Shown here piece by piece: positions 11,909 to 48,724 of a DNA stretch of 64,000 bases. The first letter of the stretch is position 1; each line of letters opens with the position of its first letter. The notes below the pieces were generated by a model. It ran no database searches. It was not told the origin of the DNA and worked only from the letters and a program-made list of their open reading frames with translations. A program made the translations under genes and the position numbers. The DNA is taken from NCBI GenBank assembly GCA_019239875.1, contig JAFAZI010000133.1, positions 130 through 64,129 on the forward strand, written 5' to 3'. Origin of the DNA: Frankiaceae bacterium (GTDB lineage Bacteria > Actinomycetota > Actinomycetes > JAFAQI01).

Positions 11909-14900
11909 TCAGGCCCGCAACCGCAGACCGCGGGGCGTGGGATGGAAACCGGCCGCTTCGAGCGCCACTCCGAGTGGGGAGTTCACGACCGCCGCACCGT
12001 CCGCGCGTTCGACGGCGAGGCGCCCGAGCAGCCCTTCGCGGACGGCGAGAGCGAGTGCGTCGGCCGCGGGTTGGATGCTGTCCGGCTCCTCGCTCCAGGA
12101 CAGCAGCGACTTGCCGCCGCGCTCCACGTAGATGCAGAGGTCGCCGTCGACGAGCACGACGAGCGCCCCGGCCTTGCGCCCCGGCCGGTGGGTGCCTGGG
12201 TGCTCGGGCCAGGGGAGGGCCGCGCCGTAGGGGTTGGCCGGATCGGTGGCGGCGAGAACGATGCAGGTGCTGGTGCCGCGCTTGCCCTGCGGGTCTACCG
12301 CGCCGGGCCGGGCGCGCTCGCTCATCGCGCGCATCCGGTCGACCGCGCCGGGAAGGGCGAACTGGGCGCCACCAAGACCTTCGACGAAGTAGCCCCGCCG
12401 GCACCGTCCGGTCTCTTCGAAGGCTTTGAGGACGGGATAGACCGCGGCGTAGCCACCAGGTAGGTGCTCGGACATCACAGCGCCGCGCGTCACGATGCCG
12501 TGCCGTTCGAGCAGACCGGTCGCGGCGGCGTGGGCCCTGCGAGTGGCGTCGGTCTCACGGGCGGGCGTCGCACTCCATCGGCCGGACATGCCCGATGGGG
12601 TCGGTCGGGCCGTCGCGACTGGACGCCCGCGACGTCGCGCCGGGGACCGGCCGACCTGGCGCTTCGCGCCGCCGATCTCGCGCAGCGGTGCGACGGTGTC
12701 GTTGGTGAGATGGCCGGTCCACACCAGGTCCCAGATCACGTCAGCGAGCTGGCGCTCGTCGGTGGTTCCGACGCGGTCGGCGAGCGCGCGGAAGAAGAAC
12801 GCACCGCCCCCCGCGACGGCCTCGACGACCTCGGCGTGCAGCGGTGTCGCAAACTCCTCGTCAAGCGGTGGCAGCAGGAGCGGTGCGGTGTCGGCGAGAT
12901 GCAGGGACACCCAGCCGTCGCGGCCTGGCAGCGCACCCTGACCGACCCACAGCACGTCACCGGCCGAGGTCAGCTCGTCGAGCATCGACGAGGTGTAGTC
13001 GGCGACCCGGCTCGGCAGGATCAGCGTCTCGAGCATCGAGGCGGGCACCGCCGCACCGGCGAGCTGCTCGACGGCACGGATCACCGCGTCGATGCCGCGA
13101 CCGGCATGAACTCCGACGCCCTGCCAGGCCGGCAGAAAGCGTGCATAGGTGTCGTGCGTCGACGGTTCGACTTCCTTGCGAAGCTTGGCCAGCGAACGCC
13201 GGCGAAGGCTGCGGAGAACTTCGGCGTCGCACCACTCCTGCCCGCTGCCGCCGGGCCGGAACTCGCCGTGGACCAGCTGGCCGGAGGCGCCCATGCGGTG
13301 AAGCGTCTGGTCCGCCACAGCGATCCCCAGACCGAACCGGTTCGCCAGGTCGATCGCGACGAACGGTCCGCGGCGGCGAGCAAACCGCGATGCCAGATCA
13401 CCGAGCGGGTCGGACACCGACTCGAGGAACGTGGCGGGGACACCGACCGGCATCGGTGTGCCGAGCGCGTCTCGGAACCGGCTCGCGTCTTCGATGGCGA
13501 TCCAGCGGTCCTCGCCGGCAACGCGCACCTGGATCGCGCGACGGGTCGTCTCGAGCTCGCGCACGAGCCCAGGCGTCGCGCCGCGCGCGGCGAGCTCCGC
13601 ATCCGAGAGGTCGCCGAGGACGCGCAGGGCATCGGCGACGTGCTCGACCGTGGTGAGCCGGCGCTCGTCGGTCAGCCAGGCAAGCTCGGCCTCGACCTCG
13701 CCGATCGCCTCCGGGTCGAGCAGCTCGCGCAGTTCCGCCGTACCCAGGAGCTCGGCGAGCAGCCCGGAGTCGAGGGCGAGGGCAGCCGCGCGGCGTTCCG
13801 CGAGCGGCTGGTCGCCTTCGTACATGAACTGGCCGATGTAGCCGAAGACGAGGCTGCGGGCGTACGGCGAGGGCTGGCCCGTCTCGACCTCGATGATGCG
13901 CACCGAGCGATTCGCGACGTCGCGCATCAGCTCGACCAACCCAGGGACGTCGAAGACGTCCTGCAGGCACTCCCGCATCGTCTCGAGGATCACAGGGAAC
14001 GAGCCGTACTGGCCGGCCACGGACAGCAGCTGGGCGGAGCGCTGGCGCTGCTGCCACAGCGGTGCCCGGCGACCGGGATTGCGCTTGGGGAGCAGGAGTG
14101 CTCGCGCAGCGCATTCGCGGAATCGGGAGGCGAAAAGCGCGGAGCCGCCGAGCTCTGCGGTGACGATCGCCTCGATCTCGTCCGGATCGAACACCGTGAT
14201 GTCAGGTGCCGGAGCGTCGTCGGTGTCCGGCAGGCGCAGGACGACCCCGTCGTCACTGTGCATGACCTGCACGTCCATCCCCGAGCGCTCACGCAGTCGG
14301 GCCTGCAACGCCAGTGCCCACGGGGCGTGTACCTGCGCACCGAACGGCGAGTGGATGGCGATCCGCCAGTCACCGAGCTCGTCGCGGAAGCGCTCCACCA
14401 CGATCGTGCGGTCGTCGGGCACGTGCCCGGTCGCGGCGCGCTGCTCCTCGACGTACGCAAGGGTGTTGGTGACGGCCCACTCGTCGAGCCCGAGGCCCGT
14501 GAGTCGCTCGATCGCCGCCGGCCGGTCGAGGGCTTGGAGCTCGCGCACGAATGCGCCCAGTGCGCGGCCCAGCTCGATCGGCCGGCCCAGTGCGTCGCCG
14601 TGCCAGAACGGCAGGCGGCCCGCCATACCGGGCGCGGGGGAGACCAGCACCCGGTCGTGGGTGATGTCCTCGATCCGCCACGAGGTGCTGCCGAGAGTGA
14701 AGACGTCGCCGACCCGCGACTCGTAGACCATCTCCTCGTCGAGCTCGCCGACCCGGCTCTTCTGCTCGCCGACGAGGAAGACTCCGAACAGCCCGCGATC
14801 CGGGATCGTGCCGCCGCTCGTGACGGCCAGGCGCTGCGCGCCCGGCCGACCCGTGAGCGTCCCGGTGACCCGATCCCAGACGATGCGCGGCCGCAGCTCC

Positions 14901-16369
14901 GCGAACTCATCAGACGGGTAGCGGCCGGCCAGCATGTCGAGCGTTGCGTGGAACGCGCTGTCAGGCAGCGCGGCGAACGGCGCTGAGCTGCGGACGAGAG
15001 CGGCGAGGTCGTCGACGTTCCACTCGTCCATGGCGAGCATCGCGACGATCTGCTGGGCGAGGACGTCGAGCGGGTTGCGGGGCGGGCGGATCGCCTCGAT
15101 CGCGCCTTCGGACATTCGCTGCGAGACCACGCTGGCGGGGATCAGGTCGCCGCGGTGCTTGGGAAACATCACGCCGCGGCTGATCGCGCCGACCTGGTGG
15201 CCGGCTCGGCCGATCCGCTGCAGCCCGGAGGCCACCGACGGCGGAGAGGCGACCTGGATCACGAGGTCGACGGCACCCATGTCGATGCCGAGCTCGAGGC
15301 TGCTCGTGGCGACGACCGCCGGCAGCTCGCCGCGTTTGAGCGCGTCCTCGGTGATCGCCCGTTGTTCGCGACTGACGCTGCCATGGTGTGCCCGCGCGAT
15401 CTCGGGTGGGGCGCCGCGAGCGATGCCGGCCTGAGCGATGGCGGCGGCCGGTGCTCCACCGGCCGGGAGGACCTCACCGGTCTCCCGCTCGTACGCGATC
15501 TCGTTGAGCCGGGCGGTGAGCCGCTCGGCGGTGCGGCGGGCGTTCGCGAAGACGATCGTGCTGTGGTGCTCGGCGATCAGGTCCGCGATCCGCAGCTCGA
15601 CCGACGGCCAGATGCTGTTGTCGGTCTCGCCCAGCTCGGTCATGTCCTCGACCGGTACGACGACAGACACCTCGATCGTCTTTGCCGCGGGCGGCCGGAC
15701 CACCGTCACTGGCTGCGAGCCGCCCAGGAACCGCGCAACCTCCTCGATCGGACGGACGGTGGCGGACAGGCCGATCCGTTGCGCCGGGCGATCCAGCAGG
15801 GCGTCGAGCCGCTCCAGGGTGAGGGCGAGGTGCGCGCCGCGCTTCGTGCCGGCGACCGCGTGGACCTCGTCGATGATGACCGTCTCGACGCCGCGCAGCG
15901 ATTCTCGGGCCTGGCTGGTGAGGAGCAGGAACAGTGACTCGGGCGTGGTGATCAGCACGTCGGCCGGTGCCCGCTGGAACGCGCGCCGCTGCTCCGTCGT
16001 CGTGTCGCCCGTGCGCATCGCGACGGTGACGTCGTTGACCGGTTGACCGATGCGGGTTGCGGCGTGGGCGATGCCTGCCAGCGGCGCTCTAAGGTTGCGA
16101 TCGACGTCGACCGCGAGCGCCTTGAGCGGACTCACGTACACGACTCGGCAGCGCTGCTTCGGTTCGGCGGGAGGGGGCGTGGTCACCAGCTGATCGATCG
16201 CGTGGAGGAAGGCGGCGAGCGTCTTGCCGGAGCCGGTTGGGGCGATGACGAGTGCGTTGTGGCGGTCGGTGATCGCCTGCCACGCGCCGGTCTGAGCCGC
16301 CGTGGGCTCCGCAAAGGACGCCGTGAACCACTCCCGGGTGGCGGGGGAGAAGCGGTCCAGGGCACTCAT
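11909..16369 (-). CDS. lhr: ATP-dependent helicase Lhr (large helicase-related)
   Basis: DEAD-box helicase core (APTGSGKT, DEVH) followed by the long Lhr C-terminal region, about 1486 aa. Start is placed at MSALDRF… (ATG 16369); the track ORF is over-extended to 16513. Confidence 0.9.
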   Translation of the reverse strand: MSALDRFSPATREWFTASFAEPTAAQTGAWQAITDRHNALVIAPTGSGKTLAAFLHAIDQLVTTPPPAEPKQRCRVVYVSPLKALAVDVDRNLRAPLAGIAHAATRIGQPVNDVTVAMRTGDTTTEQRRAFQRAPADVLITTPESLFLLLTSQARESLRGVETVIIDEVHAVAGTKRGAHLALTLERLDALLDRPAQRIGLSATVRPIEEVARFLGGSQPVTVVRPPAAKTIEVSVVVPVEDMTELGETDNSIWPSVELRIADLIAEHHSTIVFANARRTAERLTARLNEIAYERETGEVLPAGGAPAAAIAQAGIARGAPPEIARAHHGSVSREQRAITEDALKRGELPAVVATSSLELGIDMGAVDLVIQVASPPSVASGLQRIGRAGHQVGAISRGVMFPKHRGDLIPASVVSQRMSEGAIEAIRPPRNPLDVLAQQIVAMLAMDEWNVDDLAALVRSSAPFAALPDSAFHATLDMLAGRYPSDEFAELRPRIVWDRVTGTLTGRPGAQRLAVTSGGTIPDRGLFGVFLVGEQKSRVGELDEEMVYESRVGDVFTLGSTSWRIEDITHDRVLVSPAPGMAGRLPFWHGDALGRPIELGRALGAFVRELQALDRPAAIERLTGLGLDEWAVTNTLAYVEEQRAATGHVPDDRTIVVERFRDELGDWRIAIHSPFGAQVHAPWALALQARLRERSGMDVQVMHSDDGVVLRLPDTDDAPAPDITVFDPDEIEAIVTAELGGSALFASRFRECAARALLLPKRNPGRRAPLWQQRQRSAQLLSVAGQYGSFPVILETMRECLQDVFDVPGLVELMRDVANRSVRIIEVETGQPSPYARSLVFGYIGQFMYEGDQPLAERRAAALALDSGLLAELLGTAELRELLDPEAIGEVEAELAWLTDERRLTTVEHVADALRVLGDLSDAELAARGATPGLVRELETTRRAIQVRVAGEDRWIAIEDASRFRDALGTPMPVGVPATFLESVSDPLGDLASRFARRRGPFVAIDLANRFGLGIAVADQTLHRMGASGQLVHGEFRPGGSGQEWCDAEVLRSLRRRSLAKLRKEVEPSTHDTYARFLPAWQGVGVHAGRGIDAVIRAVEQLAGAAVPASMLETLILPSRVADYTSSMLDELTSAGDVLWVGQGALPGRDGWVSLHLADTAPLLLPPLDEEFATPLHAEVVEAVAGGGAFFFRALADRVGTTDERQLADVIWDLVWTGHLTNDTVAPLREIGGAKRQVGRSPARRRGRPVATARPTPSGMSGRWSATPARETDATRRAHAAATGLLERHGIVTRGAVMSEHLPGGYAAVYPVLKAFEETGRCRRGYFVEGLGGAQFALPGAVDRMRAMSERARPGAVDPQGKRGTSTCIVLAATDPANPYGAALPWPEHPGTHRPGRKAGALVVLVDGDLCIYVERGGKSLLSWSEEPDSIQPAADALALAVREGLLGRLAVERADGAAVVNSPLGVALEAAGFHPTPRGLRLRA

Positions 16370-16534
16370 CGCTCCATTGTCGTCCCCGGGTCTGACACCT
16401 TCTACGCGGTTCAACCGCCGGGGGTCGGGAACAGGGTGAGGATCGTCACGTCGGACCTGACCAGGAAATGTTGACCCGGCGTCAAAGAGAAGCGGCAGCG
16501 CATCACCCCACACGTTGGTTCAGGAGACAGGTTC

Positions 16535-19192
16535 ATGCCCCCCAAGCACGTCCGGCCGGTTCTCATCGGCATCACCACCTTCGCGCTCGGCTGCGGCGGA
16601 ACCGTCGCTGCCACGGCGGGGCACGCCGCTGCTTCACAGCGAATGGGCGCCGGACCGGTCACCGCCACGATGACGCTTGCCGGCGACGTGGTCCCCGGCC
16701 TGCTGACGCACCGCGACCTCGGCCGCACCTCGCCGACTCGGCAGCTGATCGTCGACCTCAACCTCACGCGACCCGACGTCGCGGGCGAGAAGGCGCTGTG
16801 GAACGCGATGTACACGAAGGGCGATCCGTCGTACCACCACTTCCTCACGCCCGCGCAGTTCGACGCCCGGTTCGGCGTCGCCCCGCAGACCTACGCCGCC
16901 GTGCGCACCTGGGCGACCCGCGCCGGCCTCGACGTGGTGAACGCGCCGGGCAGCCGCGACATCCTCCAGCTGTCGGGGACCGCTGCACAGGTTGAGAAGA
17001 CCTTCTCCGTCACGTTGCGCGACTTCCGGATCGGCGGCCGGCGGGTGTTCGCCAACACCAACGCGCCTACCGTGCCGGCGGGTCATTCCGTGCAGGGGCT
17101 GGTCGGGCTGACCAACCTGTATCGGTCGACCACGGCGCGCACGCGCGGCCCGAAGCCTGCGCAGGACGGGTGCGGCGCGCCGGCCGGTTGCACGAACCTC
17201 ACCACGCCGCGTGACCTGTGGTCGGCGTACAAGATGCCAGGCGGCGCCAAGGCGAACCCGATCGGCAATCTGAAGACGGACTTCGGCCAGGGTCAGCAGA
17301 TGGCGGTCTTCGGCGAGGGGCAGAGCTCTGGCGTGATCGCGAACCTGCGGACCTTCGAGCAGCTCAACAAGCTGCCGCGGGTGCCGGTCACGGTGGTGCG
17401 GACCGACGGAAAGAAGAAGAAGTACGACGACAACGCCGGCGAGACGGAGTGGGATCTCGACACCCAGTCCTCGACGGCGATGTCGCCGGATGTTCGCCGT
17501 GAGGTCCTGTACTTCGGGACCGCTCTTACGGACGCGAGCGTGCTCGGCGTGTTCAGCGCGTGGGCCAACGACCCGCACGGCCCGCTGCAGGCGAACGCGT
17601 CGTACGGCGAGTGCGAGGAGAACCCGGCCGGAGACACGGAGGGCACGGTTACCCCGCCGTTCTCGGCCGGCGCGATGTTCACGGTCAAGTCCGAGGACGT
17701 GTTGCGCAAGGCCACGATGGAGGGCCGCACGCTGTTCTCGTCGACCGGTGACACCGGCGGCACGTGCCCGCTGCTCCCCGTCAGCGTGAACGGCGTCGGC
17801 TACGAGATCCCGGGCGTGGAGTACCCCGCGGTGAGCCCGTACGTCGTCGGGGTCGGCGGCACCATCCTGTACACCGACGGCAGCGCGGCGGCGAAGCGGG
17901 TCACCGAGTACGGCTGGACCTACGGCGGCGGTGGCAGCAGCGTCGACTTCCCGAAGCCGGCGTACCAGAACGGGATCTCGGCGATCAGCGGCGTCTGTGC
18001 CTTCGCGCCCGGTGGCGGGACCGGCAACTCCGGGAAGCCGTGTCGAGGTCTGCCCGACATCGCCGCGCAGTCCGGTGACGTGGCGAGCAACGGGTTTGCC
18101 ATCGTCGCGGGTGGTGAGACGGCGTACCCGGGTGGTGGCACGAGCCTGTCCTCACCGCTGTCGATGGGCATGTGGACCAGGATCCAGGCGGCGGCGCCCG
18201 GCACCAAGAAGTGCGGAAAGCGAGCGTCGTTCAAGGGTCTCGGGTTCGCGAACCCGGCGCTGTACGCGGCGTACAAGAGCAAGCACGGTGGCCGCGACTT
18301 CTTCGACGTCGGCGGACCGAAGCACTCCATCCCGTCCGACGCCGTTCCGTACCCGTCGACGCCTGGCTGGGACTACCAGTCCGGCATGGGTGTGATGCAG
18401 GTGTCGCGGCTGGCGCGGGATCTCACTGGACGCAAGTCGTTGCGGCCTGCGTTCGACGTCCTGCCCAAGCAGCCGAAGGATCGGACATCGGCGAAGCGCG
18501 CGAACCCTTGTGCCCCGCTGTTCACGGACCCGGCGGGCGATGATGCGTACATCGGTGACCCGGATGGCACGGGCGGCAACCCGCAGCTCGACGTGCTTGC
18601 GGGCAACATCACCTACCTGCCGGCGAAGAAGGCGCTGCGAACGGTGATGGTGATCAAGAACCTGTCCACCGACGCCGCGAACGCGGAGGGCGGCGGCAAC
18701 GAGTACTACTTCCTCTGGAACTACAAGGGCAAGCAGTACTTCACCGACGCCGAGGTCGACTCGGTCGGTGCAGTGACCTATCACGACGGGTACGTCGACG
18801 GGACCACCTTCACCACGGCGAACGACGACACCGGTCAGTTCGTGGCGGGCAAGAACGGCCGCGTCGTCGTCGACGTGCCGCTCGCGAACATCGGCTCGCC
18901 CGCGAAGGGTGCGACGCTGACCGCGCCGGCCGCGCAGACCCGGGTGCTCGTCGGCACCGCCGGCACGGGCGGGCTGATCGAGCAGGCGGACGGATCGTCA
19001 CCGGGATCCGGGTACGTCGTCGGCCAGCGCTGCAAGCACAAGACGGGGATCGCGCCACCGCCGTACAAGGCATCGGGTGCCTCCAAGAGCGCAAAAATCC
19101 GCTACCACCGAGCCGGCAAGCCCGGTCGCATCGCCAAGCACGGTCACAACGTCGTGAAGCGCAAGCGATGCAAGGCAAAGCTCAGCGCCTGA
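16535..19192 (+). CDS. secreted S53 (sedolisin / pro-kumamolisin-like) peptidase with C-terminal extension
   Basis: Signal peptide, pro-kumamolisin activation domain, and S53 catalytic region with the SGTS-type motif (GGTSLSSP). A roughly 260-aa Lys-rich C-terminal extension follows. Confidence 0.8.
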   Translation: MPPKHVRPVLIGITTFALGCGGTVAATAGHAAASQRMGAGPVTATMTLAGDVVPGLLTHRDLGRTSPTRQLIVDLNLTRPDVAGEKALWNAMYTKGDPSYHHFLTPAQFDARFGVAPQTYAAVRTWATRAGLDVVNAPGSRDILQLSGTAAQVEKTFSVTLRDFRIGGRRVFANTNAPTVPAGHSVQGLVGLTNLYRSTTARTRGPKPAQDGCGAPAGCTNLTTPRDLWSAYKMPGGAKANPIGNLKTDFGQGQQMAVFGEGQSSGVIANLRTFEQLNKLPRVPVTVVRTDGKKKKYDDNAGETEWDLDTQSSTAMSPDVRREVLYFGTALTDASVLGVFSAWANDPHGPLQANASYGECEENPAGDTEGTVTPPFSAGAMFTVKSEDVLRKATMEGRTLFSSTGDTGGTCPLLPVSVNGVGYEIPGVEYPAVSPYVVGVGGTILYTDGSAAAKRVTEYGWTYGGGGSSVDFPKPAYQNGISAISGVCAFAPGGGTGNSGKPCRGLPDIAAQSGDVASNGFAIVAGGETAYPGGGTSLSSPLSMGMWTRIQAAAPGTKKCGKRASFKGLGFANPALYAAYKSKHGGRDFFDVGGPKHSIPSDAVPYPSTPGWDYQSGMGVMQVSRLARDLTGRKSLRPAFDVLPKQPKDRTSAKRANPCAPLFTDPAGDDAYIGDPDGTGGNPQLDVLAGNITYLPAKKALRTVMVIKNLSTDAANAEGGGNEYYFLWNYKGKQYFTDAEVDSVGAVTYHDGYVDGTTFTTANDDTGQFVAGKNGRVVVDVPLANIGSPAKGATLTAPAAQTRVLVGTAGTGGLIEQADGSSPGSGYVVGQRCKHKTGIAPPPYKASGASKSAKIRYHRAGKPGRIAKHGHNVVKRKRCKAKLSA

Positions 19193-19224: not shown

Positions 19225-19422
19225 GTGCGGCTGACCGACTTCTGGGGGCGGATGGAGGAGCACTTCGGTGCTGCCTACGCGCACTCCGTCGCGCGTGACC
19301 AGGTGATCGGGCGGCTCGGCGAACGGTCGGTGGTCGACGCGCTCACCGCGGGCGAGGACCCGAAACAGGTCTGGCTCGCCGTCTGCGAGCACTTCGAGAT
19401 CCCGGTCGCCCAGCGCCACTAG
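19225..19422 (+). CDS. DUF3046 family protein (conserved recA-upstream gene of actinomycetes)
   Basis: 65-aa protein MRLTDFWGRMEEHFGAAYAHS…; equivalent of the Rv2738c-type gene that normally sits directly upstream of recA. Confidence 0.8.
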   Translation: MRLTDFWGRMEEHFGAAYAHSVARDQVIGRLGERSVVDALTAGEDPKQVWLAVCEHFEIPVAQRH

Positions 19423-19479
19423 GTTCGGGTGCCGTTTCACTCGCTCACGCCGCCGTGTGCTTGGCTCCGCGGCACCGGT

Positions 19480-19514
19480 GGGGGATGAAAGACCAAAGAG
19501 CGTCTTCATCTCCC
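19480..19514 (+). terminator. imperfect GC-rich hairpin downstream of the DUF3046 gene
   Basis: GGGGGATGAAAGAC / GTCTTCATCTCCCC arms with an 8-nt loop. No U-tract follows. Confidence 0.25.
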
Positions 19515-19602
19515 CATCGATTCGCGCCTTGGTTCATCCGTACATAGCCGGCGTTCTTCATCACTCACCCGAGTGACCTAGCCCCGCGTAATCCGACACA
19601 GA

Positions 19603-19878
19603 GTGCGACACGATGGGACCGTGGTCGACGAGGCAGATTGGCAGCAGGCAGCCTTCGAACTGAGTGGGTTTGCCGATGAGGGTGCCCTAGCCGCGCGCCT
19701 TGCTGACCAGAGCGAACTGCTTACCGCCTTCCGTGGGGGCGACGAGGCCGCGGGCGCACTGGCAGCCGACGCCCTGGATCAACTGGAGGGCATCCTCGGT
19801 GATCTTGAAAGGGATCTTCCGCGCCTACGAGCAGCCGTCGCATACCTGCTTGCCCATCTACCGCCCACGCGCGACTAG
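19603..19878 (+). CDS. hypothetical small acidic protein
   Basis: ORF only. It lies in the lower-GC island and has no recognisable domain. Confidence 0.3.
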   Translation: MRHDGTVVDEADWQQAAFELSGFADEGALAARLADQSELLTAFRGGDEAAGALAADALDQLEGILGDLERDLPRLRAAVAYLLAHLPPTRD

Positions 19879-20433
19879 CGCAGAGGTGCCGCTCGCGCGC
19901 GTGGGCTTTGTTACGGCGTGTGCTTGAACTAGTGATCTCAGGCCCGGACTATGGACCGGTGCGGCCGGTTCGATTGCCTTTGTTGATAGTGCTGGCCGTC
20001 ATCTGCGTCGTGATCACCGAGGCATGCGCCCCAAGCAACAACGAAAGCGACTGTCATATCCCGCAGCCCGCAGTCGGCGACTCGGGGAGCGCGACACTTC
20101 AGGCTCACCCGGCTCGCCACGTTTTGACTGCCAGATTTGGGGGACGCCACTGGCTCGCGCGCTCGCAGTTGAACGAGGTCCAGCCACTGGCCCACGCGAC
20201 AGTGATCCCGTCTCGGCCTCGCGGTCGGCGGCCTAAGACCAGTCGGCGCGGCATGCCTCCCCGACTTCGCATTGAGACCAGTCCGCCCATCGTCCTCAAT
20301 CTCGTGGAGATCGGGTGCGGATGATCGAGAAGTGCCTGATCTTGAGCGTGACATCCGGCGTTGTGAACTTTCCTAATCATGGCCTTTGCGGTACATCCGG
20401 GAGGTAGCCTTCGCGAAGGTGCGGGAGGCGCGG

Positions 20434-22422
20434 ATGTGGCGACGTGCGTTAACCGCGGCCGTATTGATCTTGACGGTGGTGCCTCTCTCGGCTGCGTCGG
20501 CGGGCGCCGATCACCGGTCGCGTTTCGAGGTCTCAGTTCGTCTGACGTCCCAGACGATCCTGATTGGGGACCATGCTGACCTAACCGGCAAGGTACGAGG
20601 CGGGATTCCTGGGACGAAGGTTCGCCTGCAGCGACGCGTCGCCGGCGCGTGGGTCGACAGGCGCCGTGCGCAGTTAGCGCGGCATTCCACCTTCGAGATC
20701 AGCCTCCCAACTGGCAAGGCTAGGTCGGTCCAGTATCGCGTCGTGAAACCCGCAGGGCGGGCGCGCCATCACATGGTGGAACGGTCTGGCCACAGTGCCC
20801 CAGTGAGACTGACGGTCTATCGCCGGCTTGATGTTAGTGATCCCGCGGACGGAAGTGCGTATAGCTACTACGACCACCGACTTAGCGCGCCGCACGTCAT
20901 GCACGGCAGCTGGCGGCTCGGCGGGGGCGCCCTCCCACACGGCCTCACGCTGTCGCAGGACGGTCAGATCACAGGAACTCCGACCGCGCACCAAACTGCG
21001 ACTTTCAGGTTGGAAGCGACTGGGACCGACGGAGCCGACCGGGTGAGTGAGCCGCTCCAAATGACGATTCGCGCCTACGTCAACGATGTAGGCAAGTACT
21101 GGTCTGCCGTGGCGGCACCTGACAGGTCCACCCGAAACGGCCAGTTTCAAGACCAGTTATTTGACGTCGACTGTCCCGCCACCGGCCAGTGCACTGCGGT
21201 CGGCACATACGCCGACTACTCACGAGATGGCCTGGGCGGCGTGCTCGTGGAGACTCTCGCTCTAGGCCAGTGGGTCGACCAAGAGGTGCCCCTGCCACCG
21301 GGCGTGACCGGACGGGCTGGGCTAAGTCAGATCGACTGCTCGGACTCGCTGAACTGTGTGGCTATCGGCAGCTTCGTCAACGACGGCAACGACTCCGACT
21401 ACTTCGCGCACGGTCTGCTTGGCGTCGAGACCGCTGGCGTCTGGACATTGAGCGTCGCGCCTACCCCGAGCGCCGCAGCTGCGGCAGGCCAGCAGTACAT
21501 GGACCTGACCTCCCTCGCTTGCAGCGGTCCAGCCGCGTGTGTTGCCTTCGGCGTCACGAGCGCCGGCGGAGCGCAGCACGTAAACGAAGCAACTGGTGTC
21601 GCCGAGACGCTGTCCGCGACGACGTGGGCCGCGACCACCGTCGATGCAGCGCACACATATGTCGGGCTGGCACATGCCACCTGCAGCGCCTCCGAATGTG
21701 TCCTCATCGGCCGTGGCTCGCCCCAGGATCGACTCATTGAGGGAAACGGGTCCGTCTGGTCGTCAACCGCGATCCCGTACGCCGCGCCAGCCTCGGCGGA
21801 AGCAAACGCCGTATCCGCACTGCGATGCTTCACCGCCGACTCGTGTACGTACATCGGCGCAGAAGCCGATATCGGGGCGGGCGGATGGCAGGGCATCGTC
21901 GGGTCGGTCGACAAGACCGTACCCAACTCCACATTCGGTCCAGCGGTACCTGACGTCGCGGGAAACTGGTTCTACAACGACTTATCCTGCACCGGCGCCA
22001 CCTGGTGCGCAGCTGGGGGTGTCTACGCGACGGCGACGGCCGCCCAACAGCCGGACGTGGCGACGTACGCCGCCGGCACCTGGACTGCGATTGGTCTCGT
22101 CGTCCCTCCCAGTCCCTATGACACGGAGGAGTCGCCGCCTGAGGGCTCTATCGAACACATCGACTGCCCTACGGTCGATCGATGCGCGGCCGCTGGCGCG
22201 GCAAACGCCGGAGCTCTGCTCATCACACGCGACGCTGATAGCTGGCATACGTTCTTGGCCCCGGCGCCCAGCGACGCGAAGCCTAGGGACAACGATCTTC
22301 AGTCGCTGAGTTGCGCGTCGACTACCTTCTGTGTGTCGGTGGGCGAGTACTACACGGCCCAATTTCCGCAATTACCCCACGGCTTAATCGAGACATACGA
22401 CGGACCACCGGCAAGCAGCTAA
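20434..22422 (+). CDS. secreted protein with Ig-like N-terminal domains and eight Cys-x4-5-Cys tandem repeats
   Basis: Start at MWRRALTAAVLILTV… (signal peptide) with GGGAGG 6 nt upstream. Contains a putative Ig-type segment (LPHGLTLSQDGQITGTPTA…). It then carries eight roughly 50-55-aa repeats, each beginning C-x4-5-C-x-[AV]-x-G and containing a conserved Trp. Confidence 0.7.
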   Translation: MWRRALTAAVLILTVVPLSAASAGADHRSRFEVSVRLTSQTILIGDHADLTGKVRGGIPGTKVRLQRRVAGAWVDRRRAQLARHSTFEISLPTGKARSVQYRVVKPAGRARHHMVERSGHSAPVRLTVYRRLDVSDPADGSAYSYYDHRLSAPHVMHGSWRLGGGALPHGLTLSQDGQITGTPTAHQTATFRLEATGTDGADRVSEPLQMTIRAYVNDVGKYWSAVAAPDRSTRNGQFQDQLFDVDCPATGQCTAVGTYADYSRDGLGGVLVETLALGQWVDQEVPLPPGVTGRAGLSQIDCSDSLNCVAIGSFVNDGNDSDYFAHGLLGVETAGVWTLSVAPTPSAAAAAGQQYMDLTSLACSGPAACVAFGVTSAGGAQHVNEATGVAETLSATTWAATTVDAAHTYVGLAHATCSASECVLIGRGSPQDRLIEGNGSVWSSTAIPYAAPASAEANAVSALRCFTADSCTYIGAEADIGAGGWQGIVGSVDKTVPNSTFGPAVPDVAGNWFYNDLSCTGATWCAAGGVYATATAAQQPDVATYAAGTWTAIGLVVPPSPYDTEESPPEGSIEHIDCPTVDRCAAAGAANAGALLITRDADSWHTFLAPAPSDAKPRDNDLQSLSCASTTFCVSVGEYYTAQFPQLPHGLIETYDGPPASS

Positions 22423-22706
22423 CCATCCCATCGCTAGCTGTGTACCTCCGTGCTGCTCTTCGCGAACGCGCGTGACCTGCGCGTGGTGCGCGGGACGTCG
22501 TAGTCGAGCCGCCCATCGTCGGTGGGCCACGTGATCGGGATCCTGCGCGCGGGGCCGACGAGCTCCCCAGATAATCTGCGGCGACATCGCAACAGGACAA
22601 TCTCCACCGGCGAAGGAACAGGGCGAGCAAGGACGCGCGCCGCGAGACGTGCATAGGTGCCGTTTGCGAGCACATATCGCTCATCTGCTGCGCCATCATG
22701 TGACCC

Positions 22707-23003
22707 ATGTCCGCTGCCGAGCAGGACCCCACCATCGGTGCCTCGCGCTCCCTCATCGACGGTGACTGGGAGTGGCCTGTCCACGGTCTACGTCACCCAC
22801 CAGCGGACCGAACATCCGGCTGGTACGTCTGGACCGGCGATCTCTCCCACGCCGATGACTTTTTCCAGCCGTGGCACACCAGCCATCTGGTGGAGCGGGT
22901 CCCGCAGTTGGCGTCCTTGCTTGATCTCCCTCCGGGGTCGAGATTCTTGATCGCGCCTGACCATCTGGACACCTGGAAAGACCCGTCTCTCCTCGACGTG
23001 TAG
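22707..23003 (+). CDS. hypothetical Trp-rich small protein
   Basis: 98-aa ORF (…WEWPVHGLRHPP…WYVWTGD…FQPWH…). An alternative antisense ORF at 22434..22784 overlaps it. Confidence 0.35.
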   Translation: MSAAEQDPTIGASRSLIDGDWEWPVHGLRHPPADRTSGWYVWTGDLSHADDFFQPWHTSHLVERVPQLASLLDLPPGSRFLIAPDHLDTWKDPSLLDV

Positions 23004-23139
23004 GCGCCTAGAAGTGCCGATCGCGGCGTCTGGCCCTCCGGCCTGCAGGATCGGGCCGGGCGGTCGTTCGCGTAGGCATAACCCGCGTATGGCGCTCTTT
23101 CGTCGGCGGGCCGAATCGCCGACGCCGCCACGGGCTCCG

Positions 23140-23850
23140 ATGCGGAGTCTGGAGGACCTCGTCCACGTCAAGCCTCCTGCCTGGCCGTGGCTCGCTGAAC
23201 TCATCGAGAGGTCTCGGGTCCCAGTTCGTGTTATCCCTGCCGATCCGGAGGCAGCGAGCACGTGCCTGTATCGGTTGCAGGTGAGCGTTGCCTCGGCTCT
23301 GGGTGCAGTCGCGTTCAACACGGGTGGGCTCATCGTGGATCACGGATGGCTGCGGATCCTCGGCTGTGGCGGTGAAGGGCTGACTGACCTGGCGATGGCA
23401 AATGCGCTCGGCGATCGAGCGAAAGCGGCAGGCCCCCCGTCACATCTCGTTGTCGCCTATGACGTCGTCGGCGGGCGATTCGCCGTGAACGGCGGTGGGT
23501 TGCCAGGCCCGTCCGGACAGGTTCACTACTGGGGACCCGACACCTTGAGCTGGCACTCTCTCGGTTTCGGACACTCTGCGTTCATCGAATGGACTCTCGC
23601 CGGCAGCACGGTCGATTTCTATTCTTCGCTGCGCTGGCCGGGTTGGGAAGAAGACGCTGAAAGCGTCGCCGGTGATCAAGGCATCCTGCTCTACCCGCCG
23701 CCGTTTTCTGCGCAGGGCCAAGACACGACCAACGTCGCCCGGAAGGTTGTGTCCTGGGACGAACTCGTCGGCATGTATGACGACTTCAGTCGCCAAATGG
23801 GTGAGCTGCCGCCCGGCACCGAGTTCCAGATCGTTGTGACTGACGACTGA
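23140..23850 (+). CDS. DUF2625 domain protein
   Basis: Start chosen at MRSLEDLVHVKPPAWPWL…; resembles the DUF2625 family (recalled from memory, not searched). Confidence 0.55.
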   Translation: MRSLEDLVHVKPPAWPWLAELIERSRVPVRVIPADPEAASTCLYRLQVSVASALGAVAFNTGGLIVDHGWLRILGCGGEGLTDLAMANALGDRAKAAGPPSHLVVAYDVVGGRFAVNGGGLPGPSGQVHYWGPDTLSWHSLGFGHSAFIEWTLAGSTVDFYSSLRWPGWEEDAESVAGDQGILLYPPPFSAQGQDTTNVARKVVSWDELVGMYDDFSRQMGELPPGTEFQIVVTDD

Positions 23851-23898
23851 CGACTAGAAGTGCCGTTCTGCGGTGGAGGTCGAGGTTCAGGGACGATG

Positions 23899-24132
23899 TC
23901 AGACTGTCAGTAGAAGTACGCCGAGGATCACGCTGACCGCGCTCGGCGCGACCAATAGCAAAGACAGACGTCGGAGCTGATCGCCCCACCCGTGGATCTT
24001 CGATCTGTACGCCTCGCTGGGCTGTCGGTGGGTGAAGCTGATGTTCCAGCGCCGGTAAATCAGGGAGCCTTCATACGTCAGCGCAATCGGGCACGTCCCG
24101 AGCACAATCAGAAGAATCCCGGCGGTCGTCAC
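23899..24132 (-). CDS. small membrane protein (two predicted TM helices)
   Basis: Hydrophobic N- and C-terminal segments. Codon usage looks atypical for this genome. Confidence 0.4.
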   Translation of the reverse strand: MTTAGILLIVLGTCPIALTYEGSLIYRRWNISFTHRQPSEAYRSKIHGWGDQLRRLSLLLVAPSAVSVILGVLLLTV

Positions 24133-24257
24133 ACGGCTAGTTTGCCCGCGCCCTAGGTTGCCATTCGCCGGAGAAGTGCCCGCTCGCGTCCGACGCTGAG
24201 CGATCAGGCGCTATTGGACGCTCGAACCATCGACAGGGCCTGGCAGGTCGTAAGACC

Positions 24258-24656
24258 ATGGCGTCCGTGCATCGACCCGCGCTCATCCTGGTCGGGGTGG
24301 TGCTCGCCGCCACTGGTTGCAGCAGTTCCGACGCAGGCGGAGAATCCGCGTCGCGTACCTCGTTCGCACCAGCAGCGGGGACTGTGCCAGCCAACGGTCC
24401 TCCTGACGTAGTCGGGATGCACCTCGGCAAGGCGCTGCGCACACTGCGAGTTGCAGGCTTCGCTTGGCGTGTGAGGGCCGCCCTCCAGCCGCGGGACGCC
24501 AATCTGGGGCGAGTCGTCGTCCAATGCCGCCCCAGCGGAGGTCCGAACGGCAAGCACCGCATCTCGGTCATCTATGCATCCACCGGAAACACCGTTCTGT
24601 CAATGCGCTCGGCGACTCCGGCCGATCTTGAGTGTGCGTCACGCTGGGCGCACTAG
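24258..24656 (+). CDS. lipoprotein with PASTA-like domain
   Basis: Signal peptide plus lipobox (LAATGCSS). PASTA-like segment PPDVVGMHLGKALRTLRVAGF…GRVVVQ. Confidence 0.65.
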   Translation: MASVHRPALILVGVVLAATGCSSSDAGGESASRTSFAPAAGTVPANGPPDVVGMHLGKALRTLRVAGFAWRVRAALQPRDANLGRVVVQCRPSGGPNGKHRISVIYASTGNTVLSMRSATPADLECASRWAH

Positions 24657-25098
24657 AGGGCGATGCATAGATGCCGTTCCCGAGCGGGTGGACCGGCGTT
24701 ATCGTGCGGTCGTGTCACTCGATGAGGATGGACGTAACGCCCTCCATCACGCTGCGGTACGCGGTGAGGTCGACGTGCTGGCCAGCCTTCCAAAGCGCGG
24801 AGACCATGACCTCGACCTCGCCGATCGTCAGGGCTTCACGCCGCTTCACTTTGCTGCGCAGCAGGGCGACCTGGAAGCCGTGCGACTGCTGCTGGTCGCC
24901 GGTGCATCTGTCGACCCGCAGGACAGCCGCGGGAACACGCCGTTGTGGCGCGCCGTCTTCGGCAACAACGCTGTCGCGGAGATAGTTCAGCTGCTCCTGG
25001 CAGCGGGCGCCGACCCTGACATCACGAACAACAGTGGACGGTCACCACGAGATATGGCCGCGACCTTTAACAAGGCCGAGATAGTCAGTCAACTCTGA
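24574..25098 (+). CDS. ankyrin-repeat protein
   Basis: At least three ANK repeats (NALHHAAVRGEVDVL…, GFTPLHFAAQQGDLEAVRLLLVAGA…, GNTPLWRAV…). The start is uncertain (possibly GTG 24712), because the track ORF overlaps the preceding gene. Confidence 0.65.
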   Translation: MHPPETPFCQCARRLRPILSVRHAGRTRGRCIDAVPERVDRRYRAVVSLDEDGRNALHHAAVRGEVDVLASLPKRGDHDLDLADRQGFTPLHFAAQQGDLEAVRLLLVAGASVDPQDSRGNTPLWRAVFGNNAVAEIVQLLLAAGADPDITNNSGRSPRDMAATFNKAEIVSQL

Positions 25099-25171
25099 TC
25101 GCGTACACGACCGAGCCTCAGCCACGGTCCGCAGACTATAGGTGCCGTTCACGGAACCTGATCGGCAGCCG

Positions 25172-25618
25172 CTAAGTCCCAACTCGGTTCCAGGGAGGCG
25201 GAGCCACCCACCAAGCAAGGTGTCCGTCTGTGCGGCACCGTCGGGCGATGCGATCCACATGGACGGAGCTGAACCCCCCACCGAGGGCACGGTGCTCGGC
25301 GTGGCGCCAAGCAATATGACCGCGGCGGTTGTAGATCCGAAGTGGCCTGACCCGGTAGTAGTAGCCGTGCGGCCACAGAGCCGCATGCAGTCCGTTTCCG
25401 TCGTGTAACCAGACACAACGGGCCTTCTTGCCAACCCGAATCGTTGCATCTCGCATCAACATCGCGGGAAGCGTTCGTGTCCGGCCGTAGGTGGGGAGCG
25501 CGTGGGCGCCCGACGGAATCGGACGGGCTCGGCTCGATGCCCCGACCGGATCCGAAGCAATGAGAACACACATTCCAAGAAGCACGCTCAACCCGAGCCA
25601 AGCGACCCGCCGCGCCAT
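25172..25618 (-). CDS. hypothetical secreted protein
   Basis: Start at MARRVAWLGLSVLLGMCVLIAS… (signal peptide). Trp/His/Arg-rich, with no recognised domain. Confidence 0.5.
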   Translation of the reverse strand: MARRVAWLGLSVLLGMCVLIASDPVGASSRARPIPSGAHALPTYGRTRTLPAMLMRDATIRVGKKARCVWLHDGNGLHAALWPHGYYYRVRPLRIYNRRGHIAWRHAEHRALGGGFSSVHVDRIARRCRTDGHLAWWVAPPPWNRVGT

Positions 25619-26099
25619 TCGACAGCCGCGCACACGCGAACGATATGCGGCGGGATCCGTGAACGTGGAAGTGATGCTCTTTCCCGCGGGCATCGCGTCC
25701 CGCCGCAGGCGGCAGACTATGAGTTCCGTTAGCCGCTCACGACGACGTCGGCACCGCGCCAAAGAAGTGCCCGACTCGGCACCCGAGCCTTCCGTGAGCC
25801 GCTAGTGAACCCGGAAGCGCCGAGGGATAGATGCCAGCCACAAGGGTCAGCCCGCCAATTCCACTACCGACTGCCAGGCGTGGCCAGTTGGGAACTTCGG
25901 CCCCTCGCAGCTTGCAAGCGGGATTCCCGGAGGCTCCGACGGACATGAGCCTTCAGCGACCGTTCCTGCCACGGCGCCATTGATCAGCCCGAATATCGCC
26001 GACAGCAACACGATCCCCAGGAGCCGCCGGATCACGTCGTGACCGTAACGCTGATCGTCATCGACGCGTTCGGACGCGCGGCGGCGTGTCGGCTTTACT

Positions 26100-26115
26100 T
26101 CGAACACCTGTTCTA
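26100..26115 (+). promoter_or_regulatory. LexA (SOS) box upstream of recA
   Basis: TCGAACACCTGTTCTA, versus the actinobacterial consensus TCGAAC-N4-GTTCGA. It lies 107 bp upstream of the recA ATG. Confidence 0.7.
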
Positions 26116-26221
26116 TAGGTTGTGGAGAACGACATGGCGTCCACAGATCCGGATCGCGCCTCGAAACTGTCCGACCCGGCTCCTAACGTCAGCGGCACCA
26201 GACACCACTCGGAGGGCTCGC

Positions 26222-28610
<2,389 letters not shown>

Positions 28611-28621
<11 letters not shown>

Positions 28622-29141
28622 GCCGCGCTCGAACGACCCGGAGCCCGATCCGGAGTCGGTCGCTCGCGCCATCGCCCTTCGCCTGCTCGAGGCGCAGCCA
28701 CGCACTCGCGCCGAGCTCGCGACGGCGATGGCAAAGCGCCGGGTCCCACCGGAGGTGGCCGACGCCGTCCTCGATCGGTTTGTCGACGTCGGCCTGATCG
28801 ACGATGCCGCGTTCGCCCAGGCCTGGGTCGACAGCCGGCACCGCGGCAAGGGCCTGGCTCGGCGGGCACTCGCGGCCGAGCTCCGCAAGCGTGGCGTCGA
28901 TGACGAGCTGGCAAAGGACGCCCTCGAGACAGTCAGCACCGACGACGAAGCGGCCGCCGCCGAGGCGCTGGTCCGTCGCCGGCTGCGCAGCATGTCCGGT
29001 CTCGCCCCAGACGTCCAGCTGCGCCGGCTCGTGAGCATGCTGGCTCGCAAGGGCTTCGGTGGTTCGCTCGCGTATTCCGTCAGCCGCCGGGTGATCGAGG
29101 AAGATTCGACTTTCCTAGACGATCTTCCGGTCTCGCCCTAA
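28611..29141 (+). CDS. recX: regulatory protein RecX
   Basis: RecX family three-repeat helical protein. It overlaps the recA 3' end. Confidence 0.85.
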
Positions 29142-29228
29142 CCTCGGAATCACCAGAGAGTCACAGTCCGTGACGCGGGCGCGCCAGTGCCCACAGTCAC
29201 GTTCCATTTGTGGGGCGGGGGCGCGCGC

Positions 29229-30668
29229 ATGACCGCTCTTGTCGCGGTGTTGGTCGTCGCCGTGATCGCCATCGGCGCGGCCGTCGTCGTCCTGCTCCGG
29301 CGCGTCACTGTCGGCGTCACCCCCGCGCCGCCGCCGCCGACGTCACGGCCCGAAACGGGCGAAGCGCTGTCCGACCTGCAGCGCCGTGAGCAACGACTGC
29401 AGGACCGCGAGGAGCGCCTCGAGCAGGAGGCGAGACGGCTCGCCGAGCGCGACAAGCAGCATGCCGCTGCGGCGGCCGCCCTCGACCGGCAACGAGACGA
29501 GCTTGCGGCAGCCACCGAGCACCGCCAGGCGGAGCTTGAACGCGTCGCCGGGCTGACCGTCGCCGACGCGCGGGCCGAGCTCGTCAAGGTCATCGAGACC
29601 CAGGCCAAACGCGAGGCCGCTCACATCGTCCGCGACATCGAGGCCCAGGCAAAGGAAGAAGGCGAGGAGCGCGCCCGCAAGATCGTCACCCTCGCCATCC
29701 AGCGGGTCGCGAGCGAGCAGACCGCGGAATCGGTCGTGTCGGTTCTCCACCTGCCGAGCGATGAGATGAAAGGCCGCATCATCGGCCGCGAGGGTCGCAA
29801 CATCCGCACCTTCGAGGCTGTCACGGGCGTCAACCTGATCATCGACGACACTCCCGAGGCGGTGCTGCTGTCCTGCTTCGATCCGGTACGGCGCGAGGTC
29901 GGGCGGCTGACCCTCGAGAAGCTCGTCCTCGACGGCCGGATCCACCCCCATCGCATCGAAGAGCAGCACGAGCGCAGCAAGGCCGAGGTCGACGGGCTGT
30001 GTGTCCGCGCCGGCGAGGACGCCTTGGTCGATCTCGGGATCACCGAGATGCACCCCGACCTGATCGCGCTGCTGGGTCAGCTGCGCTACCGCACGTCGTA
30101 CGGCCAGAACGTCCTCAAGCACCTCGTCGAGTCGGCGCACATCGCCGGGATGATGGCCAGTGAGCTACGCCTCGATCGTGACGTCTGCAAGCGTTGCGCC
30201 CTGCTGCACGACGTCGGCAAGGCGCTCACCCACGAGGTCGAGGGCTCCCACGCGATCATCGGTGCCGAGATCGCCCGCAAGTACGGCGAGTCCGAGGACG
30301 TCGTCCACGCGATCGAGGCGCACCACAACGAGGTCGAGGTCCGCACCGTCGAAGCCGTGTTGACCCAGGCGTCCGACGGCATCAGCGGCGGCCGGCCCGG
30401 GGCGCGACGGGAATCACTCGAGCACTACGTGCAGCGACTCGAGCGGATCGAACAGATCGCCGGCGCCCACGACGGCGTCGAACGGGTCTTCGCGATGCAG
30501 GCCGGCCGCGAGATCCGGGTCATGGTCAAGCCCGAGGACATCGACGACATCGGCGCCCAGGTGATCGCCCGTGACGTCGCCAAGCAGATCGAGGAAGAGC
30601 TGACCTACCCCGGCCAGATCCGCATCACCGTCGTCCGTGAGTCCCGAGCCACCGAGGTCGCCAAGTGA
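29229..30668 (+). CDS. rny: ribonuclease Y (N-terminal TM, KH and HD domains)
   Basis: N-terminal TM (MTALVAVLVVAVIAIGAAVVVLL), coiled-coil, KH domain (MKGRIIGREGRNIRTFE) and HD domain (LLHDVGKA). The track ORF starts 14 codons too early. Confidence 0.85.
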   Translation: MTALVAVLVVAVIAIGAAVVVLLRRVTVGVTPAPPPPTSRPETGEALSDLQRREQRLQDREERLEQEARRLAERDKQHAAAAAALDRQRDELAAATEHRQAELERVAGLTVADARAELVKVIETQAKREAAHIVRDIEAQAKEEGEERARKIVTLAIQRVASEQTAESVVSVLHLPSDEMKGRIIGREGRNIRTFEAVTGVNLIIDDTPEAVLLSCFDPVRREVGRLTLEKLVLDGRIHPHRIEEQHERSKAEVDGLCVRAGEDALVDLGITEMHPDLIALLGQLRYRTSYGQNVLKHLVESAHIAGMMASELRLDRDVCKRCALLHDVGKALTHEVEGSHAIIGAEIARKYGESEDVVHAIEAHHNEVEVRTVEAVLTQASDGISGGRPGARRESLEHYVQRLERIEQIAGAHDGVERVFAMQAGREIRVMVKPEDIDDIGAQVIARDVAKQIEEELTYPGQIRITVVRESRATEVAK

Positions 30669-47657: not shown

Positions 47658-47689
47658 ACGAACATGCGTTCGATCGAACACCGGTTCGA
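47658..47689 (+). promoter_or_regulatory. LexA boxes 2 and 3 (abutting)
   Basis: ACGAACATGCGTTCGA immediately followed by the perfect TCGAACACCGGTTCGA. Confidence 0.7.
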
Positions 47690-48223: not shown

Positions 48224-48724
48224 GTGCATTGTCCGTTCTGCCGCTATCCGGACTCCCGAGTGGTCGATTCCCGCGAGACCGACGACGGCGCCGCCATCCG
48301 CCGCCGCCGCTCCTGCCCGGAGTGCGAACGACGGTTCACGACGCTGGAAACCGCGAGTCTGGCCATCATCAAGCGCTCGGGAGCAACCGAGCCGTTCAGC
48401 CGGAGCAAGGTGATCGACGGCGTCCGCAAGGCCTGCTCAGGCCGACCGGTCGACGAGGATGCCCTGGCCCGGCTCGGACAGCAGGTCGAGGAGACGGTGC
48501 GGGCCAGTGGTGCGGCGGAGATCCCCGCGCATGAGGTCGGCATGGCCATTCTCGAGCCGCTGTCCGAGCTGGACGAGGTCGCCTACATCCGGTTCGCAAG
48601 CGTCTACCGCAACTTCACTTCCCTCGATGACTTCGTCATCGAAGTCGCGGCCATGCGGGAGCGGGAAACCGCGCCTGACCCAGCCGATTCGGGAGCAATC
48701 CCGGCCACCACAGCGTTGAACTAA
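48224..48724 (+). CDS. nrdR: transcriptional repressor NrdR
   Basis: Zn-ribbon ([16 protein letters not shown]…CPECERRF) and ATP-cone. GTG start with GGAGGTG 7 nt upstream. Confidence 0.93.

Follow-up and report, generated by a model that had tools for sequence, protein, structure and literature searches.

The 64 kb stretch of contig JAFAZI010000133.1 that we analysed (hereafter the window, in which all coordinates are given) carries an additional segment of about 6.66 kb between the DUF3046 gene and recA, in a neighbourhood that has the classical actinobacterial recA order: Lhr, S53, DUF3046, recA, recX, and RNase Y. We refer to this segment as the islet; it is very likely a lineage-specific gain of accessory genes by the window species after its split from the nearest sampled relative, by a route that we infer below. 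The stop codon of the DUF3046 gene (19225–19422, + strand; 65 aa, PF11248 E-value 7e-27) and the start codon of recA are separated by 6,799 bp (19422 to 26222). The left limit of the islet was set at the DUF3046 stop codon and the right limit at the start of the recA promoter core conserved in relatives; as this core starts at about 26079, the islet—to which no strand is assigned—spans 19423 to approximately 26078. These limits are close to the 19430–26095 of a preliminary description of the window, which had pointed to about 6.7 kb between the two genes and had read it as an insertion or lineage-specific accessory cargo, a reading that both the relatives and the base composition support.

Related loci were collected with a scan for the DUF3046 protein (19 loci, one genome per species) and through the closest intein-bearing RecA homologues (three more), and homologues of the islet genes were sought in all 22 by tblastn (E≤1e-5). 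None was found between DUF3046 and recA in any of the 22, so that the genes of the block are foreign to this neighbourhood, as had been proposed. The DUF3046–recA spacer is short (177–456 bp) in 16 of the loci. The closest relative found is L024 (L-numbers denote loci of public or related genomes compared here), with amino acid identities of 82% for Lhr, 97% (96.8%) for the RecA N-extein, and 75% for the intein. Its gene order—TetR, Fpg, Lhr, DUF3046, intein-bearing recA, recX, rny—matches the surroundings in the window, but it has neither the S53 gene nor any islet gene between DUF3046 and recA, where its spacer is 188 bp. In L024, L025, and L033, all with the same recA intein as the window, DUF3046 and recA are only 184–327 bp apart, and they are also adjacent in 13 further actinobacterial loci. 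Since no relative carries an islet gene at this locus while the spacer of the closest relative is short, a lineage-specific gain is indicated. Relatives with the same genes at backbone values of GC content at third codon positions (GC3) would have pointed the other way; none was found.

The islet also differs from its surroundings in composition. The GC content is 0.643 in 19430–26095 (as in the islet as a whole) and 0.685 in the rest of the window, and the candidate genes of the islet have GC3 values of 0.64–0.77, compared with 0.82–0.92 for backbone genes. Atypical composition and absence from close relatives at the same locus, both expected of a horizontally acquired island, are therefore seen together, although the neighbouring N-extein and intein of recA share the low GC3. 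Between 19422 and 28287 there is no open reading frame (ORF) with GC3 above 0.78, with the sole exception of one opposite the ankyrin gene. The highest GC3 in any frame, taken in 600-nt windows, averages 0.70±0.03 in 19.43–28.29 kb and 0.84±0.06 outside it, and this is the only contiguous low-GC3 stretch of about 10 kb in the window; other dips extend over at most 2.6 kb, and several fall at gene junctions. The lower GC and GC3 first described for the block thus hold within it, but the low-GC3 tract does not end at 26095: it continues past the recA promoter through the N-extein (0.68) and the intein (0.67) and returns to 0.86 in the C-extein, at about 28.29 kb.

At the right limit of the islet the native recA promoter and leader (26079–26221, + strand) were aligned with those of six relatives (alignment A2). 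A promoter core, GGCGTGTCGGCTTTACTTCGAACACCTGTTC, at 26079–26113 is conserved in this alignment, the window having the L010 sequence; upstream of the core the relatives diverge completely. A box scan places the LexA (Cheo) box GAACACCTGTTC at 26102–26113, within a core near-identical to that of the relatives, and the earlier statement that this box is intact stands. No second LexA box or duplicated promoter was found by the scan at the left border. Because the insertion lies upstream of the conserved promoter, recA regulation is expected to be untouched.

We envisage that an uncultured Frankiaceae/Mycobacteriales-like soil actinobacterium gained an islet of about ten little-characterised genes, which would have come to lie just upstream of the conserved recA promoter, in the short and weakly conserved stretch that follows the DUF3046 stop codon. 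The route, we infer, was most probably either illegitimate recombination or a homologous exchange by way of the core genes on either side, and the donor would be an unsampled lineage with lower GC3.

Of the two origins proposed earlier, lineage-specific cargo is the one we favour; the other, an old insertion whose mobility genes have been lost, we consider unlikely. On this view the islet would be what is left of a prophage or integrative element after decay of its integrase and attachment sites, in keeping with the atypical composition, the absence from relatives, and the lack of recognisable genes in 1 kb at the left end (19.43–20.43 kb) and 0.9 kb at the right end. However, no integrase, transposase, phage, or conjugation domain was found in the called genes or in the other open frames of the unassigned stretches, the islet contains no tRNA gene—in agreement with what had first been reported—and there is no match to Rfam. 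A collection of phage DNA gave no match to the islet, and among plasmid DNAs the sole match is to an Arthrobacter conjugative plasmid, on which a distantly related DUF2625 gene has transposases beside it. A check for short direct repeats at the two edges had been suggested, and its outcome was negative: no border-to-border direct or inverted repeat of at least 12 nt is among the families listed by the repeat scan, and the 6-nt sequence GTTCGG present at both borders (19424–19429 and 26068–26073), the only trace in favour of an eroded attachment site, is a match expected by chance and was treated as such. The islet accordingly lacks the mobility genes, tRNA target, and flanking direct repeats of a typical island, and the phage or conjugation protein families of a prophage or of a remnant integrative and conjugative element. 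As no recombinase, tRNA, Rfam family, border repeat, or phage DNA match was found, the islet is passive cargo and not a self-mobile element.

The extension of low GC3 into recA raises the question of whether the islet and part of recA arrived together. The gene (26222–28621, + strand; Pfam RecA, RecA_C, Intein_splicing, and LAGLIDADG_3) comprises an N-extein (26222–26974), an intein (26975–28285), and a C-extein (28286–28621). The intein follows in frame after ...VKVVKNK, with the boundaries CLAAGTRV...VVHN/C in the translation, and judged by these features it is a full intein of the LAGLIDADG endonuclease type, inserted at what we take to be the site of the Mycobacterium tuberculosis RecA intein. 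In the four carriers of this intein the GC3 values of N-extein and intein are, respectively, 0.68 and 0.67 in the window, 0.75 and 0.72 in L024, 0.82 and 0.70 in L025, and 0.89 and 0.83 in L033; the N-extein of intein-less orthologues has a GC3 of 0.87–0.97. Four other loci (L008, L014, L017, and L022) have recA inteins at one or two other sites (two in L022), with host-like GC3 of 0.83–0.92; recA in this group has been invaded by inteins at several sites.

It could be supposed that a homing endonuclease cut an intein-less recA and that repair from a donor with cargo upstream of its recA brought in the islet, promoter, N-extein, and intein together, by gene conversion over one tract of about 8.9 kb (19.43–28.29 kb). 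Low GC3 does extend unbroken over 19.43 to roughly 28.29 kb and gives way to the backbone level near the intein/C-extein junction, and the window has the lowest GC3 of the carriers in both N-extein and intein. The synonymous divergence (pS) of the intein between the window and L024 is also near saturation (0.68), compared with 0.41–0.48 in flanking genes, and co-conversion of flanking DNA during homing is known (PMC3943268 and PMC2790892). Against a single tract, the window N-extein is sister to that of L024 (96.8% amino acid identity, compared with at most 93.6% for others), as is also the case for the host gene Lhr. When L006 and L010 serve as outgroups, the share of informative synonymous third positions that changed on the branch leading to the window is 24% in the N-extein and 16% in Lhr, and GC-to-AT changes are in roughly two-fold excess (22/156 in the N-extein, 44/665 in Lhr), a moderate excess and not a wholesale replacement. 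L024, moreover, lacks the islet although its recA has the intein and an N-extein of low GC3, and the promoter core of the window does not differ from the one in a relative with no intein. A wholesale foreign replacement of the N-extein is ruled out by its sister position to L024 and the moderate synonymous excess; the pattern points to mostly vertical descent with extra GC-to-AT drift, and because of this we rate import in one tract as quite unlikely. What is left is the low GC3 of N-extein and intein, an observation apart from the islet and explained only in part; its gradient among the carriers could be the footprint of one-sided co-conversion during intein homing, followed by gradual return to host composition.

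A further possibility is suggested by a recurrent intergenic motif. The 8-mer GTGCCGTT is present in eight exact copies in the window (2.5 expected), four of them within non-coding parts of the islet, each on the + strand. The best copy, TGCATAGGTGCCGTTTGCGAGC (22650–22671, core at 22657), is upstream of the Imm33-like gene. The other exact cores begin at 19429 (7 nt after the DUF3046 stop, at the left junction), 23860 (10 nt after the DUF2625 stop), and 25142 (44 nt after the ankyrin stop); two + strand cores with one mismatch begin at 19886 (8 nt after the stop of orf91) and 24671 (15 nt after the lipoprotein stop). In five of the six cases, then, a + strand stop codon lies 7–44 nt upstream. 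Two copies agree at 18 of 21 nt, with the consensus TGCATAG[G/A]TGCCGTT[T/C][G/C]CGAGC; as a scan pattern the islet motif was written TGCATAGRTGCCGTTYSCGAGC. No similarity extends beyond about 21 nt, and no copy is present in any relative's locus. The motif was considered as a promoter for an extracytoplasmic function (ECF) sigma factor (-10 CGTT, -35 GGAAC), and inspection revealed no GGAAC at the right spacing; a sigma-70 consensus scan gave no site.

Islet genes could have accumulated stepwise as an array of one- or two-gene cassettes, with the motif as capture site for a recombinase encoded elsewhere and unrelated to the attC/IntI system of integrons. The copy at the left junction coincides with the insertion point after the DUF3046 stop. 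Integron cassette arrays consist of an intI integrase and attC sites, imperfect palindromes of approximately 60–130 nt, between the cassettes; the islet has no integrase, and its motif is about 21 nt long without extended or palindromic similarity. We find capture of cassettes decidedly improbable; the motif could much more plausibly be a shared operator or promoter element of the islet genes, which is the more ordinary interpretation.

Ancestral content, lost in the relatives, fares less well. The statement that DUF3046 and recA are normally adjacent holds for 16 of the 22 loci; in the other six (L005, L012, L018–L020, and L022) genes occupy a spacer of 1.8–4.5 kb, and occupancy as such is therefore not rare. 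These occupants, however, are unrelated to the islet and have native GC3 (0.86–0.94). In L018–L020, which are Streptomyces, there is an AI-2E family transporter (GC3 0.91–0.94), accompanied in L020 by a metallo-beta-lactamase-fold gene and a thioesterase gene, and the non-Streptomyces spacers contain a zinc-ribbon/cyclase/AAA/TPR protein, a membrane protein, or MFS plus ABC transporters. For the islet to have been present in the common ancestor and deleted independently in relatives, many independent precise deletions would be needed, given the short spacer in the closest relative and on deeper branches; no relative retains a homologue of an islet gene between DUF3046 and recA, and islet GC3 is 0.1–0.25 below the backbone. 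This history is very improbable.

That the islet is a chimeric join from metagenome assembly or binning, a concern in a metagenome-assembled genome with a composition shift at the left junction, has a negligible probability, because the Lhr–S53–DUF3046–islet–recA–recX–rny order, or the part of it spanned, is present in four independent public assemblies at 99.96–100% identity, each separately assembled contig having 0–3 mismatches with the window: ENA ERZ27313880 (35.7 kb) contains both islet junctions, NCBI GCA_019243655.1 and ENA ERZ27313819 the left junction, and Logan SRR8113284 the islet interior only.

The largest islet gene (20434–22422, + strand) encodes a protein of 662 aa with a signal peptide, a low-confidence N-terminal region, a He_PIG immunoglobulin (Ig) domain (PF05345, E-value 7e-8), and eight repeats of about 55 aa, much as the preliminary description of a secreted protein with eight Cys-rich repeats had it. 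A C-x5-C pair is invariant in all eight repeats (alignment A1), whose consensus is L.SVSCPSAGSCVAVG.Y....G...L..T.SGGTWTA..APLP. AlphaFold2, run with a shallow alignment, gives four strands per repeat, with a predicted local distance difference test score (pLDDT) mostly of 75–95 over residues 220–660, and the top Foldseek matches of the model are all beta-propellers—sortilin Vps10p, GH74, sialidases, and Ycf48—with template modelling (TM) scores of about 0.3. The repeats are accordingly predicted to form an eight-bladed, Cys-clamped beta-propeller, a fold for which, at such low TM scores, the model does not allow a specific family or activity to be named. Apart from the protein itself there is no homologue above 27% identity. 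In distant homologues propeller repeats are joined to Ser/Thr kinase, cutinase, or fibronectin type III domains, and this suggests that the propeller may serve as an extracellular binding module; two such homologues (P0124 and P0137) share no common gene neighbourhood. At 19685–19921 of L024, about 7 kb downstream of recX, there is a weak match to the propeller repeats (33% identity over 81 aa), the only match to an islet protein at that locus, and the repeat family would on this showing be present in the lineage outside the islet. A PDB sequence search returned nothing for the propeller protein, the DUF2625 protein, or the Imm33-like protein.

Upstream of the propeller gene are two small + strand ORFs. 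A hypothetical acidic protein of 91 aa (orf91, 19603–19878; publicly 85 aa, from 19621), called in L001 and L004, has no match in Pfam, NCBIfam, PADLOC, or PHROG. It is followed by a hypothetical ORF of 138 aa (19908–20324; publicly 134 aa) with one hydrophobic segment, no Pfam or NCBIfam match, a GC3 of 0.70, and weak codon-position periodicity, and its coding status is uncertain.

Downstream, on the + strand, lies a gene (22707–23003) for a Trp-rich, Imm33-like protein of 98 aa (PF24719, E-value 5e-25). An exhaustive search gave 518 representative homologues, mostly stand-alone proteins of 100–130 aa, some fused to DUF4265, DUF4262, or DUF2019. Imm33 has been described as a mostly-beta immunity domain with a conserved Trp, associated with HNH, DHNNK, and NGO1392-like nuclease toxins and frequent in polyimmunity loci, in which ankyrin repeats (Imm-Ank) are another immunity domain (Zhang et al. 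2012, PMC3482391).

The next gene (23140–23850, + strand; frame open from 23014) encodes a DUF2625 protein of 236 aa (PF10946, E-value 3e-65). The protein is full-length for its family. Counted along the frame as it opens at 23014, family matches, those to the NCBIfam PRK11408 models among them, begin at Met43, where the 236-aa form starts, and this form appears in two of four public gene calls. A metagenome scan returned five distant matches (35–53% identity), mostly on contigs shorter than 3.2 kb, with no conserved neighbourhood and no Imm33 neighbour; the best, at 50–53% identity, are on soil-metagenome contigs of 64–66% GC. A single-sequence structure model of the protein, with a pLDDT of 35, is unusable.

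The remaining genes are small. A hypothetical peptide of 77 aa with two hydrophobic helices (23899–24132, – strand) is called in L001 and L002 and matches no family. A putative lipoprotein of 132 aa (24258–24656, + strand), whose signal peptide ends in LAATGC, has a weak PASTA-like segment; the match to PF03793 is sub-threshold (E-value 0.027, 14.9 bits against a cut-off of 23.2, over 25 residues). An ankyrin-repeat protein of 136 aa with a GTG start (24688–25098, + strand; Ank/Ank_2 E-value 4e-24) is also a public gene call. A putative secreted protein of 148 aa starting with MARRVAWLG (25172–25618, – strand; frame open to 25762) has no family match, and its frame is uncertain, L001 and L002 calling instead an overlapping – strand gene of 124 aa (about 25042–25416). 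The two-helix peptide, lipoprotein, and secreted protein are identified by sequence inspection. A Pfam search thus upheld most of the gene list first drawn up—the 662-aa, Trp-rich, DUF2625, and ankyrin proteins—and left the PASTA assignment of the lipoprotein weak.

Finally, an ORF of 86 aa with one hydrophobic helix (25847–26107, – strand) diverges from recA and has its start codon inside the LexA box. It is probably not a gene, because its first ten or so codons overlap the promoter conserved in relatives that do not have this ORF, although it may be a small SOS-controlled membrane peptide. PADLOC defence models gave only generic ankyrin matches, and an anti-phage defence system is not indicated; the PHROGs gave likewise only generic ankyrin matches and one marginal match of the lipoprotein (E-value 8e-4) to a PHROG of unknown function.

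The function of the islet may be a mixture of envelope or exported proteins and orphan immunity-type proteins. The first class would include the Ig and eight-bladed propeller protein, probably a binding module, together with the lipoprotein, the two-helix membrane peptide, and the secreted protein; the second would include the Imm33-like and ankyrin proteins, and possibly DUF2625, as orphan immunity against polymorphic toxins. Nothing links the cargo to recombination or SOS. The insertion with its limits and composition, the intactness of the promoter, and the domain content are shown by the data; how the islet was acquired and what it does physiologically are proposals.

Several observations weigh against lineage-specific gain of such a cargo. 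Neither a donor nor a near relative could be found for any of the islet genes (the closest are 50–53% identical for DUF2625 and 27% for the propeller protein), so the case for foreign origin rests on absence from relatives and on composition. The low GC3 also affects the adjoining recA N-extein and intein, and the signal could be partly regional. The sample contains only one fairly close relative (Lhr 82% amino acid identity), which leaves the timing of the gain coarse, and several of the small islet ORFs are without homology support. For the immunity component in particular, the evidence consists of one family name, Imm33-like, and generic ankyrin repeats; there is no toxin gene in the islet; and no literature was found on DUF2625, whose context in L029 (GNAT, NUDIX, HAD, Ank, and hydrolase genes) was considered as evidence of immunity and is a mixed accessory array with no clear immunity array.

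On the other side of the DUF3046 gene, the Lhr helicase gene (11909–16513, – strand; GC3 0.87) is followed by a gene for an S53/kumamolisin-type peptidase of 885 aa (16535–19192, + strand; Pfam Pro-kuma_activ E-value 1e-19), and the GC3 of the DUF3046 gene itself is 0.92. The S53 gene is absent from every relative's locus examined, and is a second lineage-specific gain, outside the islet and with a native-like GC3 of 0.90. Lhr and DUF3046 are directly adjacent in L006, L008, L010, L014, L023, and L024, and in L007 and L012 the spacer between them holds an ECF sigma factor gene and a neighbouring ORF of no known family. Since unrelated genes are found in these positions in other lineages, and S53 and the islet here, the two spacers flanking DUF3046 are recurrent sites of gene gain that repeatedly accept genes. 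Beyond recA follow recX (28611–29141) and rny (29187–30668), which encodes RNase Y. Three further exact GAAC-N4-GTTC boxes are present in the window, two at 47660–47687 (4 nt apart) and one at 48326–48337; they probably mark another SOS-regulated promoter, possibly that of lexA itself.

The conserved actinobacterial DUF3046–recA junction can thus take up foreign cargo without disturbance of the SOS promoter, both spacers flanking DUF3046 recur as sites of gene gain, and an uncharacterised family of predicted extracellular eight-bladed, Cys-clamped beta-propellers is documented. What remains of interest is the motif, the propeller family, and the imprint on base composition around the recA intein. 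The finding would matter more if the motif were a cassette junction, or if the Imm33-like, DUF2625, and ankyrin proteins formed a functional immunity module, in a group for which few studies of polymorphic-toxin conflicts exist, or if the low GC3 of N-extein and intein were the footprint of recent intein homing with co-conversion.

The best-known comparable locus is that of M. tuberculosis, in which Rv2738c (DUF3046) is followed by recA, with the RecA intein PI-MtuI, and recX. The window has the same order of DUF3046, LexA-box promoter, recA, and recX, and a LAGLIDADG intein presumably at the same site, and differs in the 6.66 kb insert before the promoter and in a GC3 of intein and N-extein that is unusually low for the host. 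The Streptomyces loci resemble the window in having genes in the DUF3046–recA spacer; their AI-2E transporter is common to all three occupied loci and has native GC3, and this spacer content looks like an old, vertically inherited one, whereas the islet is low in GC3 and species-specific.

Polyimmunity loci (PMC3482391) share with the islet Imm33-related and ankyrin genes that are small, mostly co-oriented, and without an adjacent toxin. They differ in that the islet has a single family-level immunity annotation, DUF2625 not being a described immunity family, that its genes are interspersed with exported and membrane proteins and not in a tight tandem array, and that there is no adjacent XerC/D-type recombinase. 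Tested as an array, the islet yields one Imm33-like match and one generic ankyrin, with exported or membrane proteins as the other neighbours; as an extended polyimmunity locus it does not qualify, since there are at most three candidates, which are not contiguous, and no recombinase was found.

Small genomic islets, or hotspots of flexible genes, are species-specific genes of atypical composition located between conserved core genes. The islet is like them in its position in a core-gene spacer, in the different occupants of that spacer elsewhere, and in the absence of element-encoded mobility. It is distinguished by its very small size (about ten genes), its position directly against an SOS promoter, the motif in its spacers, and the absence of close relatives of its genes among 5.8 billion protein clusters, a search that is uninformative for eight small islet ORFs, which were joined in one query of 971 aa that missed even the ORFs themselves. 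With these features of its own, it still belongs to a familiar kind, the small lineage-specific islet in a spacer that tolerates insertions, and does not represent a new type of system.

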